This document shows, one piece after another, positions 9,743-63,802 of a stretch of DNA of 64,000 nt. Positions within the stretch are counted from its first letter, which is position 1; every line of letters starts with the position of its first letter. The stretch lies in contig OX597818.1 in NCBI GenBank assembly GCA_951406725.2, positions 33,108,001 to 33,172,000 on the forward strand. Direction: 5' to 3'. The notes under the pieces were generated by a model. It did no database searches, had not been told where the DNA came from, and worked only from the letters and a program-made list of their open reading frames with translations. This stretch comes from Octopus vulgaris. Taxonomy: Eukaryota. The position numbers were made by a program, and so were the translations under genes.

Positions 9743-10971
9743 CGGGAGTTGGACAAAATAATGTATACACCTTAAAATTTCAAACAAATTTATTTTAAGA
9801 TGAGATAGGACTTCCTTTGGCAGTAATTTCAGCTTCAATTCTACGAGGTATGGACTCGTACAAAGTTTGAATTGCATCCAAAGGAATTTTAGTCCATTCT
9901 TCAGCTAAAACAGTCTCCATTTCTCGTAGTGATGATGGTGGGGAATATCGATTCTTTATTTGTTTTTCTAAAATGTACCATGAATGTTCAATAATATTGA
10001 GATCTGGGGACTGTGGTGGCCAGATAAGATGTTCGACTTCACTAGAATGTTCCTCGTGCCATTCAATAACAAATTTAGCTGTGCGAATTGGTTTATTATC
10101 ATCGTGAGAGATTGCGATTCCCTCTGGAAACAGTTCCGCAAACATAGGATGAATTTGATCAGATAAATTGCTTAAATAGTCTTGACTGTTAATTCTGCCA
10201 CGAAGAGAAACCTTTGGGCCGGTGGATTTTCAAGATATAGCCCTCAAGATCATCACAGATCCTCCTGCATGTTTAAAAGTTGGAAGAAGCAGTCTGAGTC
10301 AAAAGCTTCTTTTGGCTGTCTCCACACGTATACTCGGTGGTCGGAAATAAAGTAATGGATGACTCATCCTTGAAAATAACACTCTTCCACTGCTCTAGGG
10401 ACCAATTTTGTAGGTTTTTACTCCACTCTAAACGCTTTGCAACCTTTGTTTTTGAAAATTGTGCTTTTCTCATGGAAGCCCTGCCGTGAAATCCGGCTTT
10501 GTGCGGCTCCCGGCAAACAGTTTTTGTGGTTATTAATCTCTGCAGTAATTTTGGGAACTGTAATTTTGTGATCCTTTATAATAATTCGCGTAAGAGTCCG
10601 ACGATCCCTATCTGAAAATTTTGGTTTTCTTCCAGAGATTTGTTTCGACGAGGAAGTATTTCCCTTTATCTCAAAGGCTGTCATTACTTTCGATATAGTA
10701 CTTCTTGATACACCAAACATTTCGGCTGTTTTTCGTTACGCTAGCGGCTGCCATAAGAGCGCCAACAATTTGACCGATAGATCTGTCATTTTAATGAATT
10801 TTAATTATCTTTTTCTGATGATATCTGAAAAGAAACAAGCAATTTTAGCGAAACATTATGCAATACTAATAATAAATTAAAAAAATATAAAAACAAACAG
10901 GCTTTTGACGGTTTTATAGATATTTATGATGCTATGATGCTAGGTGTTTCCATTATTTTGTCCAACCCCTG
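9743..10971 (-). mobile_element. Full-length decayed Tc1-family DNA transposon (frameshifted transposase)
   Basis: ~30-bp TIRs CGGGAGTTGGACAAAATAATGTATACACCT / AGGTGTTTCCATTATTTTGTCCAACCCCTG, with TA on both sides (9741-42, 10972-73). Minus-strand pieces: HTH 'FGVSRSTISKV..SGRKPK..DRDRRTL', 'WKSVIFKDES', 'WPPQSPDLNIIEH..W', 'LYESIPRRIEA'. Confidence 0.93.
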
Positions 10972-22710: not shown

Positions 22711-23493
22711 CTTTTCTACTGTCGGCACAAGGCCCAAAATTTTGGGGAATGGGCCAGTGGATTAGATCGACCCGGTACGCAACTGGTACTTAATTTATCG
22801 ACCCGAAAGGATGAAAGGAAAGTCGACCACGGCGAAATACCGCTACGCATTTCACCCAGCGTGCTAATTTTCTTTTCTACTCTCGGCACAAGGCCCCGAA
22901 AATTTTTCTTGGTGGGTGGGGCAGTCAATAAGATCAAACCCAGTACGCAACTGGTACTTAATTTATCGACCCCAAAAGAATGAAAGGCAAAGTTAGCCTC
23001 GGTGGAATTTGAACTCAGAGCATAAGACAGATGAAATACCTATTTCTTTACTACCCACAAGGGGCTAAACACGGAGAGAACAAACAAGGACAGACAAACG
23101 GATTAAGTCGATTATATCTACCCCCAGTGCGTAACTGGTACTTATTTAATCGATCCCGAAAGGATGAAAGGCAAAGTCGACCTCTGCGTAATTTGAACTC
23201 ACAACGTAACGGCAGACGAAATACCGCTAACCATTTCGCCGGGCGTGCTATCGTTTCTTATTTCTTTATTGCCCACAAGGGGCTAAACATAGAGGGGACA
23301 AACAAGGACAGACAGAATGATTAAGTCGATTATATCGACCCAAGTGCGTAACTGGTACTTAATTTATCGACCCCCGAAAGGATGAAAGGCAAAGTCGACC
23401 TCGGCGGAATTTAAACTCAGAACGTAGCGGCAGACGAAAAATCGCAACGCAATTCGCCCGGCGTGCTAACGTTTCTGCCAGCTCGCCGGCTTC
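22711..23493 (-). mobile_element. Composite of four SINE-A units under one TSD
   Basis: Four bodies (CTGGTACTT..ATCGAC..AAAGGATGAAAGG-like); 16-bp TSD CCATCTGCACAATATT at 22695-710 and 23494-509. Confidence 0.85.
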
Positions 23494-38781: not shown

Positions 38782-39937
38782 TGTACACACACACACACAC
38801 ACACATATATACGTTCACATACATACGTACACCTATACACATATGTGCATAGCTTTGTATACGGTGTCTGAACCTCATAAACATAAGGTTGTCTATTCGA
38901 TTCCTGGAGCCGAGATGAGAAAATAATCAATAAATGAATAGTATTAGTGGGTAGTTGTGTGCTCTAAAAAAGGGTATTTAAAAATCGATGTTGGTTAAAA
39001 AACATTTATTCCTTCGAATCATCAAATGAAACTAAATTATCTAAGCGCATCAGAGCATTGACTGTCGAATCCAACTGCTAAATATGAACCGTCTGTTGAT
39101 AAAGGCGACAATTCCAACGAAAGAATTTATGCTGATATGAAAATGTGAAGACAAAATCAAATATGGCAAGAATGAGAAATAATTGAAAGTCAATGCAAAT
39201 AGGAATTGTAAAACAAGAAAGCTAATTTACTGCATCAGATGTCCGCAATACAAAGAAAACTATATCGGTTATGCAGAACAAAGTTAATGTACCGAGTCAA
39301 AGAACGTCAACCAAATATCAAGGATCTATCATAAGTGTCCCATGTAGTGAGCATTTAATCATCTTTGCCAACAGAAAATTGAAATATTTCCAAATTTACA
39401 AGATAACAAAGGAAGGGAATAGATACAAAAGTCAAATCAAGAACACTTTATAATGATTATCAGTCCGAAACAACAGGAGATAGTGACAACCGCAACCGAT
39501 ATCGGTAACTAGTATATTAATATAATAGCAGGAAATTTGTTTATATGACAGGTTTGGAATACAGAAAACAGCGAATATGCTTCGACAAAAAACTCCATAT
39601 TCTATTCGTTTTCTATATTTCGCTCATAAATATTTTTTAAAAATAATTTTGAATTAATTTTTATTAAACTTTTATTATTCTGTCAAGAATATATTCTTAG
39701 ATATATGGATAAATACACTTTCATACAAACACTTATGCAAAAGCACGTAAGTATATTTGTTTACACAAATAATCAATTGCATATATATAATATATATATA
39801 TATATATATGTATGTATATATGTATGCATGTGCACACAAATGCATATATGTGTATATGTACATCTATCTCTCCCAGCCTCTCTTTCCATTTCTTTCTCTC
39901 TCTCTCTCTATATATATATACATATATATATATATAC

Positions 39938-51223: not shown

Positions 51224-53455
51224 TTTTTCTTTTCTTGCTTGTTTCAGCTTAGAGCTGCGGCCATGCTGATGCACCGCCGTTTTGTGCTACACTGTTATTA
51301 CGAAGAACCTCCTCTAATATGTGGCACTTGGTGAAGAATGGAGTTTGACATAGCTACTCTCATTTGCACCTCTTGCCGTGAGGTAGGTTCATCCGGGACT
51401 CTCGACAGGAAGATGTCCAACTTTGATTTAAAAACTGCTACATCTACTTTGTGCAAGTTCCTCAGACACTTTGGGAGAATATAAAAAAGCTGTGGGCCCT
51501 TGAAACCCAGGCTGTTGCAGAAGCTGGTCCTGAAGCGTGATGGCATCGCTGGGATCTTTGGCACTATTCAGTGTCGTCCCGTTCTAGCATTGGTGTAGCT
51601 TACAAAGCCAAAATTTGGCACAATTCCTTCCAGGATCTTCCAGACATATATTACTGCATACGTCTGCCGTCTTCTCTCTAGGGAGTAGAGTCTTAGCTGT
51701 TTCAACCTTTCCCAGTAGCTGAGCTGTTCCCTAGAGACAATCTTCTTTGTGAATCTTCTCTGGATTGCTTCAAGGTCCGCTGTTAACTTTACACTGGAGG
51801 GTGACCATAGCTGTGAGCAGTAATCCAGGTGGCTGAGAACGAATGTCGCCAGAGGACCATCATGGTTTCCTTATCTCTGGTTCTGAATGTTCTTAGGATC
51901 CATCCAGCCAGTCGTCTGCACTTTGTCGCCATCCTGGTAATGTGCACTTGGAAAGAGGTATCATCACTCATGTCGATACCCAGGTCCCTCACAGACTTAG
52001 GCTCCCTGTGGACCGATGTATCCTGTAAGTTTAATATTCAGTTTTGGATGCTGGTGGCGCAGGGCCTGGGATTTTTCAGCATTAAACTGCATATTATTAT
52101 CCTCAACCCATCTGTAGATTGAGTCCAACTCCTGCTGCAGGTGTGCAACATCGCTGGGGTTCTGTATTTTCTGCGAGACTTTCGTATCGTCTGCATAGCT
52201 TGCCAGAGTGGCAATCCGGGCATTTGAGGGCATATCTGAGAGGGCCACTATGAAAAGCAGTGATCCCAAGACAGTGCCCTGTGGAACACCGCTCACTATT
52301 TGTGTGTTCATAGAGGCGGCTCCATTAACCACTACTGACTGACTCCTATCTTTCAGGAAGTCATGTAACCACACTCCAAGTTTTCCAGCTATGCTGAGGT
52401 CACGCAGTTTGTGGCATATCATACCATGATCCACCTTGTGAAAAGCTTTTGCAAAATCAAGGTAGATTACGTCCACATTTGTTGAGTAACTGCCTCAACA
52501 CCCAGTCATAATGTTGTAAGAGCTGGGTCAGGCAGCTCCTACCTAGTCGAAAACCATGCTCAGCAAGTTATTTTCCTCAAGGAATGCGATTAGTTTCTTT
52601 CTGACTATCCGTTCCAAGACTTTGCATATGTGTGAAGTCAGAGAGATAGGCCTATAGTTTTTGGCATCTGCTCTACTTCCCCCTTTATGTATTGGGCATA
52701 TTATTCCTTCCTTCAGCTTGCTTGGCAGTTTGCCATTCGCAACAAAGCTCTGGAAGAGAATCTTGAGGGGTTCCTTTGTCTGCTTTCTCCCTCACATAGG
52801 ATTGTTATAGCCTTTTTTCGATCTCCATCAGTGTTGTTTTTAGGCGGGACGTTTCGCTACTTTTGGGATGTTGGTTGAGAAGATTTGCAACCTCCGTCCG
52901 TCGTCTCATGAGGATCTTCCTGTCTCTTGGAATCTTGCTCCTATTTGTTTTGGCCCTGTGCTCTGGGACATATTTCTGGCATACGGCTTGCACAGAAGAC
53001 ATGAAACATTCTAGTTTCATGTCAATGTCTGGTGGAGAGACATTCCGGCCAGTCCTCTCTGAGGATCTCTTTTTGGATCGATTTCCAATCTGCTTAGTGG
53101 AAGTTCAGATTGGAGAGATTTTGGGTGCTTCCTTTAGGCTGTTTATCTCTGGTTACTTTTGGCCCAAACATAGACAGCTCTATTATGTTGTGATCCGAAA
53201 CTAATGTCGGTGTCACTTTCACATCATGAATGATGTCCATATTGTTCGTGAAGCAGAGATCCAGAATGTTATTTGCCCTAGTTGGTTTGAGTATAACTTG
53301 CTCCATGAATAAGGCGTTGGTGAGGTTGAGCAGGGACTCCACCAGTACTTGCTTGCAATGATTCATTCCTGAGAGTATGAGACCTTCAGGCCATTTGACG
53401 TTGGGGTAGTTGAAATCACCCATAAGAAATATGGTCACGTGGTGTTCCAGATTCA
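51224..53455 (-). mobile_element. 5'-truncated, internally deleted CR1/L2-group LINE (APE C-terminus, RT, 3' tail); pseudogenised
   Basis: APE motifs 'MGDFNYP..W', 'KPTRANNILDLCFTN', 'SDHNII'. RT motifs 'YLDFAKAFHKVDH', 'SGVPQGTVLG', 'YADDTK'. C-terminal 'GPQLF.ILP..LR'. Multiple frameshifts. Confidence 0.92.
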
Positions 53456-53459
53456 TATG

Positions 53460-53544
<85 letters not shown>

Positions 53545-53546
<2 letters not shown>

Positions 53547-54063
53547 CATAGTTCTTGAACCGGTACTTCAAGTGACGGCTAGGGTAGGGTAACTGACTGC
53601 TTATTGTGATCATTCGTCTTTTGGTTTCCTGTAGCTTTCCTCCCTTTACAAACCCAGTGAACATACATTTACTATTTCAAAAAAATTCAAACAATACATA
53701 TAAGACCCAAGTTAAAAAGATTTTCAACAATTCAACTTCTCTGGTTGACATTAAGATGCCCACCCCCAACAGGGGCTTTAACTCTCACATTTTAGAGCTC
53801 CATGACCTTCATTTTTTCAGAGCAAAATCTTTTTAACAGGTTCAATAACACTGGAATTTTGGAATATGCGCATAAAAATCAGTAGTATGGGATACATGTG
53901 GCACGATTACAAATTTTGTAGGGTGTGTACAGAGGGAAAGAACCCTCACCTGCAATTTTGATGAAATTCGAAACATAGATATTCCAGTTCATTACAGAAA
54001 ATATAACAGAAACGTCTAATTCTTCAATTGAATGTAACTGGGCAACGCCGGGTATCTCTGCTA

Positions 54064-54066
<3 letters not shown>
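53545..54066 (-). mobile_element. Possible non-autonomous Helitron-like element
   Basis: Minus strand begins TACTAGCAGAGATACCCGGCGTTGCCC next to (TA)n, resembling the 5' end of such elements. Confidence 0.35.
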
Positions 54067-54123
<57 letters not shown>

Positions 54124-54342
54124 ATATAGGGTGGCAAAAAATTTCGTAGAATTCTTTTGCCACCAGCGGCCTAGTGGGAAAAAATTAAATAGTCATAGAC
54201 CATTTATAAATTCAACAGCAAAATCAAGGAACGGCCATAATAGGCCATTCACCCACTAGAAATAACAGCCAAAGCTTCAACCGCAAAACAACATTAATTC
54301 CGCAAACCAGGAGAAAATTAAAAAAAAAACCTTTACCCTGTA

Positions 54343-54449
54343 GTTCCTTATACGATGCACCGTTTCATCTATTGTTTAATGGTAAACTAACCTGATTAAA
54401 TTAAATCAAGCTAGTCTTCCATAGGCCGATAGATTCGTCAGTAAAGAAC
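54343..54449 (-). ncRNA. Type I hammerhead ribozyme (mirror copy in left arm)
   Basis: Reverse complement of 55105-55211. Confidence 0.85.
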
Positions 54450-55104
54450 AGCCAGATCGGAGCAGATATTTACACGAGGCACTTCTATCACTGTCTCGGC
54501 AATATCTGACCTAAAATTTTCAAATCATCGCACTCGCGCCAAATTTATCGGCAGCAAATATAAGCCGCCGATTCCATTACGGAATTAACCAGAAAATTCA
54601 TAATTAATCAATATAGGGTGGCAAAAAATTTCGTAGAATTCTTTTGCCACCAGCGGCCTAGTGGGAAAAAATTAAATAGTCATAGACCATTTATAAATTC
54701 AACAGCAAAATCAAGGAACGGCCATAATAGGCCATTCACCCACTAGAAATAACAGCCAAAGCTTCAACCGCAAAACAACATTAATTCCGCAGCTTTGGCT
54801 GTTATTTCTAGTGGGTGAATGGCCTATTATGGCCGTTCCTTGATTTTGCTGTTGAATTTATAAATGGTCTATGACTATTTAATTTTTTCCCACTAGGCCG
54901 CTGGTGGCAAAAGAATTCTACGAAATTTTTTGCCACCCTATATTGATTAATTATGAATTTTCTGGTTAATTCCGTAATGGAATCGGCGGCTTATATTTGC
55001 TGCCGATAAATTTGGCGCGAGTGCGATGATTTGAAAATTTTAGGTCAGATATTGCCGAGACAGTGATAGAAGTGCCTCGTGTAAATATCTGCTCCGATCT
55101 GGCT

Positions 55105-55211
55105 GTTCTTTACTGACGAATCTATCGGCCTATGGAAGACTAGCTTGATTTAATTTAATCAGGTTAGTTTACCATTAAACAATAGATGAAACGGTGCATC
55201 GTATAAGGAAC
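55105..55211 (+). ncRNA. Type I hammerhead ribozyme with extended stem II
   Basis: Stem I GTTCTTTA (55105-12) / TAAGGAAC (55204-11). Core CTGACGA (55113-19). Stem II ATCTAT (55120-25) / ATAGAT (55182-87), extended by ATGG/CCAT and AGACTAGCTTGATT/AATCAGGTTAGTTT. GAAA (55188-91). Stem III ACGGTGCATCGT. GUA cleavage triplet, predicted cut after 55203. Confidence 0.85.
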
Positions 55212-55332
55212 TACAGGGTAAAGGTTTTTTTAATTTTCTCCTGGTTTGCGGAATTAATGTTGTTTTGCGGTTGAAGCTTTGGCTGTTATTTCTAGTGGGT
55301 GAATGGCCTATTATGGCCGTTCCTTGATTTTG

Positions 55333-55383
<51 letters not shown>

Positions 55384-55394
55384 TAGATAGATAG

Positions 55395-55458
<64 letters not shown>

Positions 55459-55768
55459 TCATATATATAAATAAAGACTATTTGCCAAGATTGTTACTAT
55501 TGTCTAGTCTCAGGAAACATTGTCCTTATATTTTCGAACAGGGCATCCAGCACCCCATCCAGCACAAATCAACATGTGTGGACCTGTTTCTGTCTTACTG
55601 TTCTTTATCAACACAGAGTAGCTGTTTGGCTAGGTGGCGTTAATGAATTCCTGTTCGAAAATATACAGTTTTCAAAGTGACACACAGAGACACTGATCTA
55701 ATAAACAGAAACATTATTATTTCTAAATCTTTCAAAGAAAGATATTCAGTAACAATTCTTTAAAGTAA

Positions 55769-63414: not shown

Positions 63415-63802
63415 TGCATCCTCTATGGTGTCGAATATTAGTTTACAAAAATGTATTCAAAACAAGTCATAGAGCCTTTGACAATAACAAAAAGGTTTGA
63501 GGCTTTGTGTATCCTCTGTGATGAGTTAAAAAATAGTTTACAGGTAAACATTCAGATCAGGTAACAGAATTTTTTTATGATAAGAAGAAAAAATGGTTTA
63601 CATGAATATATCTCGATCAAGTAATAGAGTCTTTGACAAGAAAATAAAATATGTTTACCCTCTGTGATGAGTCAAGAAATAGTTTACATAAAAATATTCA
63701 GATCAGATTATGAATTTTTTTAATAATAATAAGATGAAAATTAGTTTACATGTATATATCCCGATCAAATAATAGTGTTTTTGAGAAGAAGATAAAATAT
63801 GT
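63415..63802 (+). repeat. Diverged tandem repeat, ~146-bp period
   Basis: CTCTGTGATGAG at 63514 and 63660; recurring TAGTTTACA..ATTCAGATCAG and CGATCAA.TAATAG motifs. Confidence 0.7.

Follow-up and report, generated by a model that had tools for sequence, protein, structure and literature searches.

Introduction

Non-LTR retrozymes, together with the idea that they are mobilised by Penelope-like elements (PLEs), have already been published (PMC7229834; PMC7761336; bioRxiv 10.64898/2026.07.22.740005), and in the available parts of these sources the enzyme that moves animal retrozymes is not identified, PLEs being no more than a candidate. In the accessible text of the preprint (bioRxiv 10.64898/2026.07.22.740005), 24 of 57 Xenopus retrozyme families are related to the pseudo-LTR (pLTR) of a PLE, and for the axolotl a mixed pool of circles, cut monomers and multimers is reported in the accessible part of PMC7229834. 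With regard to PLEs, the tail of an insertion is often found at one end only, and the mechanism that gives tandem and inverted insertions is undefined in print (Craig et al.). According to the part of the study available, the protein of an anole PLE cuts and extends both strands in vitro, starting at two internal sites that bound the tail; it is a predicted dimer, and it used uncut RNA, its own ribozyme being dispensable (Frangieh et al., PMC11167929). The (TA)n target is known for Neptune and Naiad PLEs.

In L1 elements, twin priming from the two strands yields an inverted insertion whose parts do not overlap, the second priming occurring only sporadically.

The insertion described here (positions 54123-55334 of the 64-kb stretch of DNA that was analysed, hereafter the window) is built from one repeat unit, which forms two arms of 668 and 544 nt, placed back to back and flanked by (TA)n. 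Both end sites are fixed, the arms copy the same sequence, and each arm may exceed unit length, in all of which it differs from L1 twin priming. With the metazoan non-LTR retrozymes of coral, mussel and axolotl, as portrayed in the available text (PMC7229834; bioRxiv 10.64898/2026.07.22.740005), it shares a non-coding tandem unit with one type I hammerhead, a G+C content below 45%, a stem III whose weakness suits cleavage as a dimer, short arrays, and the presence of PLEs in the same genome. It differs from them in unit length (482-499 nt, versus about 170-400 nt in the species tested and 51-972 bp in the survey of the preprint, as given in the parts available), in a 68-nt stem II and a hammerhead missed by Rfam, in that no pLTR homologue was found in the PLE families sampled and the circles are inferred, and in the back-to-back arms within (TA)n with two fixed ends, which are not described in the accessible text of those sources; in that of PMC7229834, the terms 'inverted', 'target site' and 'microsatellite' occur 0 times. 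With PLEs of the Neptune type (PMC8557442; PMC11167929, the latter on the Poseidon element of the anole), the unit has in common, to the extent covered by the available text, the (TA)n target, a hammerhead motif, a partial tandem plus an inverted 5'-truncated arm, a tail at one end, and two internal end sites. Unlike PLEs, it has no ORF, closes on itself for up to nine turns, carries a full ribozyme core with a long stem II, and has its two ends about 104 nt apart rather than 30-40 nt. The family is a variant animal retrozyme with unusually clear marks of PLE mobilisation.

Sequences and searches

A 2.80-Gb assembly (227 contigs) was searched, and loci were mapped in three sets: the 40 most similar to the query, 40 found with a 19-mer of the ribozyme core (which completed contig C1), and 36 found with the site-B motif. 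Ten duplicate loci were removed from the list of query matches. One full 484-nt unit (54791-55274, + strand) served as the family query, and unit positions were numbered accordingly from u1 (54791) to u484 (55274).

Structure of the insertion

The left arm (54123-54790, ribozyme sense on the - strand) comprises about 1.38 units, with its 5' end at unit position 457-458 and its 3' end at site B (unit position about 155-159). The right arm (54791-55334, + strand) comprises 1.12 units (u1-484, then u1-60) and has its 3' end at site A, the orientation of the insertion being B left and A right. Site B (54123-54164, - strand) contains a 35-nt hairpin (54130-54164) followed by the AT-rich arm end, and site A (55300-55334, + strand) likewise contains a hairpin followed by the arm end. 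The centre of the palindrome, 27 unpaired nt at 54764-54790, is part of the left arm. The (TA)n target tract extends over 54065-54122 on the left and over 55335-55473 on the right, where it is soon mixed with GATA repeats. The two-arm palindrome of more than unit length within (TA)n, as originally predicted, was thus confirmed, the arms differing solely in the length of one T-run (10 versus 7). The predicted unit length of 487 nt holds for the left arm, in which 54123-54304 equals 54610-54791, but not for the right arm, in which 54791-54850 equals 55275-55334 and the period is 484 nt, because of this same T-run.

Substitutions were absent from the insertion in both the arm-to-arm (0/753) and the turn-to-turn (0/222) comparisons, and among the 40 query-like loci it was the only one with zero substitutions over more than 500 arm-to-arm comparisons. 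The unit has no coding capacity, the longest open frame in the tandem unit being 60 codons. The insertion belongs to a non-coding repeat family that bears a hammerhead motif, and is a very young copy of it. It carries one ribozyme per arm, so the locus is a product and not a monomer source: it cannot release a monomer, and no circle can arise from it.

The hammerhead motif

The type I hammerhead of the right arm was located at 55105-55211 (+ strand), with a predicted cut after 55203. Stem I is formed by 55105-55112 with 55204-55211, the core by CUGACGA (55113-55119) and GAAA (55188-55191), and stem II by the 68 nt at 55120-55187; stem III (55192-55201) consists of 2 bp with a self-complementary loop and is followed by GUA. 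In the left arm, the motif occupies 54343-54449 (- strand), with CUGACGA at 54441-54435 and a predicted cut after 54351. With such a stem III, the motif corresponds to the dimer-type hammerhead that PMC4209133, in its available part, describes from PLEs and from repeats of animals. A scan of the window with Rfam, which had been proposed as a check, returned no hammerhead, neither at gathering scores nor at E<=10, the 42 rows obtained at E<=10 all being hairpin and TA-repeat noise. The miss is attributed to the 68-nt stem II, and families with such a long-stem ribozyme, invisible to Rfam, are probably under-counted.

The 120-nt ribozyme region folds with z = -5.7 (0/200 shuffles equally stable), which, like the empty reversed controls of the genome search, speaks against a chance match. 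The cleavage-competent fold of the monomer lies 3.6 kcal/mol above the minimum-energy fold. Folding bias was rejected as an indicator of the RNA strand, both strands beating the shuffles (z -5.9 and -6.7). The conserved letters CUGA-GA deviated at 2 of 461 locus-positions, compared with 908 of 28,702 outside the ribozyme, in loci of which half had been chosen by their match to the 3' half of the core and none by CUGANGA. Position N7 was free, all four letters being found (C42, U20, G12, A3), and in stem I (76 loci) C-G and U-A were exchanged via U-G at pair 4 (CG53/UA19/UG4) and pair 5 (UA46/CG23/UG7). The cleavage triplet was GUA in 83, GUC in 12 and CUA in 1 of 96 loci, and in 93 of these 96 all 10 nt of stem III pair with a second copy. 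At the base of stem II, where G-C is the usual pair, A-U was found in 58 of 77 loci and A-C or A-A in 18; with this base and the active monomer fold 3.6 kcal/mol up, a lone ribozyme may cut poorly. All these conservation counts come from related loci and are not independent events. The predicted type I hammerhead in each arm is borne out as a motif by its near-invariant core, free N7 and compensatory stem I changes, and, as judged from sequence conservation, this motif is under selection in the family.

The repeat family in the genome

The 19-mer of the ribozyme core gave 994 exact matches genome-wide and the site-B 19-mer, with at most one mismatch, 3,905 matches; the reversed control gave 0 in either case. 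A rough extrapolation from both counts puts the family at about 500 to 1,800 loci. On contig C1, 81 core matches fell into 39 loci, in 21 of which at least one arm contained two or more cut sites. With at least two consecutive ribozymes, the family is 'active' as the preprint uses the term, whereas the locus 54123-55334 is not. Monomers measured from cut to cut (n=48) were 482-499 nt long and 87-100% identical, and in the longest arms (7.2 and 9.4 units) the same unit was repeated throughout. At L100:2092-3540, two separate palindromic B+A insertions of the unit lie within 1.5 kb.

A unit always tied to a Penelope ORF had been named as the finding that would reduce it to a pLTR fragment; the arms never reached an ORF in 115 loci. 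Pieces of PLE ORFs were present in the flanks of 7/80 and 2/36 loci, outside the arms, and in L097 (read by eye) the PLE has its own end, with a TA tract between it and the unit. A recently active, non-coding, hammerhead-bearing family of retrozyme type, as the original prediction had it, is supported, no ORF being attached in the loci examined. Neither the unit family nor an end rule for retrozymes was found described in the full-text literature, from which most subscription papers and the repeat databases are excepted; the supplements of bioRxiv 10.64898/2026.07.22.740005, PMC11167929 and PMC8557442 lie outside this search and may bear on the end rule.

A sister family was detected beside L097 in a profile search (E = 2e-4) and is represented by L097:3740-4290 and by L215-L244. 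Its unit is 478 nt long in L221, where 284 of 436 aligned letters are identical under lenient scoring (about 65%). A first look gave 1,899 candidates, and arms of more than unit length occur. Its motif is hammerhead-like and shares the long stem II; stem III is palindromic and the triplet is GUC, but U replaces the first C of the core. The ends are at sites that align with A and B; the copies are older and their ends less clean, and the insertion in L227 looks like A+A.

Insertion ends

In the first 80 loci, the RNA-sense 3' ends of 125 of 140 arms fell at one of two sites, 73 at site A (u54-76) and 52 at site B (u155-168). Each site is preceded by a hairpin and TTGATT, and B lies downstream of A at a distance of about 102-104 nt. 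In the flanks inspected, both kinds of end pass directly into (TA)n, in agreement with the TA targets that had been anticipated. Permuted start points, which had also been expected, were not observed in this form: the 3' ends are fixed at the two sites, and only the 5' ends of the arms scatter.

Inverted junctions had both 3' ends outward without exception (78/78; 115 loci). All insertions with two regular ends were of the A+B type (67/67), none being A+A or B+B. Sets one and two contributed 45/45 (B being the left end in 23 and A in 22; ten further insertions with one irregular end stand outside the count) and the third set 22/22 (with the rearranged L202 outside the count). In this analysis L195, which runs off the fetched stretch, was omitted, and the A ends of L128, L204 and L208, where the alignment had entered the TA tract, were assigned by hand. 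Here, too, the loci counted are related and do not stand for independent events. Sites A and B are inferred to be the priming sites.

Template of the arms

The predicted cut site is crossed at least twice by 58 of 140 arms, and gaps within 5 nt of it are absent from 203 of 206 crossings. Differences amounted to 1.3% from arm to arm and 1.4% from turn to turn (both inflated by misaligned complex loci), compared with 4.0% between loci. Of the rare variants fixed within a locus, 48/52 span at least two turns, 38 of these being present also in both arms, and 42/52 occur in both arms overall; among the informative within-locus variants, 59 were singletons and one was clearly mirrored (L126). Eight rearranged loci were left out of this variant test. 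These patterns indicate, at the level of sequence, that each insertion was copied from one template sequence.

In L116:2192-4641, broken and intact ribozymes alternate over four turns, a second site is linked to them, and the opposite arm is of the broken type; such a pattern would be expected from a dimer circle in which one of the two ribozymes works. L126 is compatible with a linear multimer, in that a derived variant occupies the first turn of both arms and is missing from the turns deeper in. In L049 and L188, derived variants are confined to one arm, where they occur in adjacent turns, and L190 shows no clean period. Arrays have thus been reshaped after insertion (L049, L188, L190), and homogeneity or periodicity is therefore no proof of circles. 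Periodic variants were also considered as proof of multimer circles and rejected: L099 (period 3) and L010 (period 2) have one site each, and L190 and L188 are non-periodic. Reliance was therefore placed on L116 only.

The 5' ends of the arms have a hot spot at u419-447 (55209-55237, + strand, immediately 3' of the cut), with 30 of 183 ends versus 11 expected in a window picked after the data had been seen; it includes a T-run, which could stall or mis-join cDNA. In 6 of 65 insertions, the 5' ends of the two arms both fall within u414-450 (Fisher p = 0.0016). No pile-up was found exactly at the cut (u410-418), where 1 of 183 ends fell versus 3.4 expected. Together with the joint stops of both arms, the cluster of 5' stops, which lies 5-34 nt beyond the cut on its 3' side, suggests cut linear RNAs among the templates. 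Of the near-symmetric insertions, 11/14, including 54123-55334, fit run-off from one shared end. In contigs of four sequencing runs (three guessed to be RNA and one of unrecorded kind), a neighbouring repeat was covered about as deeply as the unit.

Penelope-like elements

Two young PLE families were characterised. The first encodes a 775-aa RT/GIY-YIG protein with a C-x4-C-x2-C linker and inserts in (TA)n (L131-L178, e.g., G000:C6:16478000-16487700). All 143 scored copies listed are 100% identical over 268 aa, and the two ends, about 30 nt apart, are distributed as one tailed and one untailed end in 18/18 listed inverted insertions. The 3' repeat of this element contains a minimal hammerhead-like motif (read by eye). 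The second family (781 aa; L071-L087, e.g., G000:C16:20834000-20842000) terminates in (TA)n at two positions separated by 40 nt, and both inverted copies seen (L076 and L078) have one end of each kind. Internal repeats of 138 nt and about 93 nt were observed in it, along with A-rich, coding-looking sequence upstream of the frame. Upstream of an old PLE fragment, at L054:570-700 (- strand), lies a hammerhead-like motif of another kind, whose stem II is long and whose stem III is palindromic.

An RVT_1 search of the genome gave 56,077 candidates, of which the best 150 were listed and left out of the analysis, and of 6,136 GIY-YIG candidates the best 150 were scored. No PLE sharing the DNA sequence of the unit was found among 88 PLE loci and the masked flanks. 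The search for a parent pLTR (BLAST against L051-L090 and five PLE loci; profile search of 205 sequences) returned no parent; the matches were confined to the sister family and to L053, where the unit forms a short insertion of its own. In the two PLE families studied, the tails measure about 40 and 30 nt, from which the spacing of A and B (about 104 nt) differs. The A/B rule matches the one-end-each rule of the PLEs, and the unit thus bears the PLE tail signature on a non-coding passenger. The predicted link to Penelope stands as regards target, inversion and end rule, but no sampled PLE shares the unit sequence. That the family is moved by a PLE is very probable.

Alternative explanations

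The palindrome is best read, with good confidence, as the outcome of two primings on opposite strands. The original prediction had instead proposed a fold-back, in which a single cDNA folds back and copies itself and endonuclease resolution sets the second end. Among 65 simple A+B insertions, this geometry (with a loop of up to 100 nt) is permitted in 15 and barred in 50, which speaks against fold-back as a general mechanism. The locus 54123-55334 is one of the 15, its shorter arm lying wholly within the longer one with a loop of 27-29 nt, and the case against fold-back at this locus accordingly rests on the family. Arm 5' ends at most 30 nt apart were somewhat enriched (14/65 versus 8.2 expected, p = 0.03), and Craig et al. 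ascribe the tail to endonuclease resolution, both of which would suit a fold-back. It is nevertheless very unlikely: in 10/65 insertions each arm has more than 10 unit positions that are absent from the other, the longer arm may be either one, and the microhomology at the junction of 54123-55334 is just about 1 nt. That the palindrome is a fold-back read or an assembly artefact is practically negligible as an explanation; no contig from the four sequencing runs (contigs only) spans the junction, but each arm stops at a different one of the two family-wide sites, the T-runs are of unequal length, 78 junctions at scattered positions obey one rule, and PLE insertions of several kb follow the same rule. 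Equally concerned with the family as a whole is the proposal that the unit is the truncated pseudo-LTR of an unsampled autonomous PLE. Target, inversion and tail rule are shared with autonomous PLEs, and the scoring covered only the best 150 GIY-YIG candidates; however, toward 5' the arms cycle through the unit up to nine times and in 115 loci never run into an ORF, and PLE ORF pieces lie only outside the arms, the PLE of L097 having its own end, which makes this proposal highly improbable.

With two primings retained as the preferred reading, the nature of the template is to be considered. A circular template is fairly likely on the sequence patterns. The rival is twin priming by a PLE on linear read-through RNA from long tandem arrays, either uncut or cut once at the 5' side, no circles taking part in the spread. 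Genomic arrays of 7-9 units (7.2 and 9.4) exist, so long linear templates are available; the mirrored variant of L126, the 11 near-symmetric insertions that would correspond to two cDNAs off one shared RNA end, the clustering of 5' stops just downstream of the cut site, and the in vitro use of unprocessed RNA by the anole PLE (PMC11167929, in its accessible part) all point in the same direction. Against this, linear copying with 5' truncation can do no more than shorten an array, and variants specific to a unit should be inherited with it, whereas 48 rare variants are fixed across turns and, of the informative ones, 59 are singletons and one is mirrored; the core and stems of the ribozyme are conserved, and L116 shows its alternation. 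A purely linear template is thus considered unlikely, and a mixed pool of circles, cut monomers and multimers would fit all of the template signs.

Proposed mechanism and significance

The reading regarded as likely overall is that of a retrozyme family copied into (TA)n by the RT/endonuclease of a Neptune-type PLE, with two cDNAs primed at two fixed sites and a circle as the probable template. Loci with at least two tandem units would be transcribed, and the ribozymes would cut, probably as dimers, after which a host ligase would close circles of 484-494 nt; cutting and closure are proposed because the motif is conserved and by analogy with known retrozymes. A PLE protein, probably a dimer, would then bind the RNA and nick both strands of the TA tract, one cDNA starting at site A and the other at site B, as the mapped end positions would imply. 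Each cDNA would attain a variable length, often past the cut and over several turns (up to 9.4 units in the arms mapped), and joining of the two cDNA ends would leave the observed back-to-back palindrome with one A and one B end.

A more specific version, twin rolling-circle integration, in which a PLE dimer grips one ribozyme circle at two sites and both subunits roll round it, is put forward tentatively and is given somewhat less than an even chance. If true, an insertion would record its source circle, including dimer circles in which a dead ribozyme rides a live one (L116); one mechanism would account for the tandem, inverted and one-sided-tail structures of PLEs; and the ribozyme circles of animals would be real templates of transposition. 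The family presents the PLE end signature without an ORF, in about a thousand young copies and in the same genome as two young PLE families with intact frames. The ideas of twin priming and rolling-circle copying can be tested directly in vitro, given that the RNA is 484 nt long, that both start sites have been mapped, and that a TA target and two candidate proteins are at hand.

Surroundings of the insertion

The 64 kb contain no tRNA gene. A high-copy repeat (53900-54065) adjoins the left TA tract; it ends with a GC-rich stretch and CTAGT, presumably resembling the 3' end of a Helitron, and a similar end also flanks L032 and L144. Further upstream, 51997-53567 (- strand) holds what we take to be old LINE-like pieces, with RT motifs at 51997-52494 and an endonuclease-like stretch at 53094-53567, and 9795-10229 (- strand) is presumably, by motif, a fragment of a Tc1/mariner-like transposase. 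A decayed PLE endonuclease relic was detected at 39189-39470 (tblastn E = 4e-5). Tandem repeats of two copies each were observed at 23041-23476 (218 nt) and 63506-63802 (146 nt).
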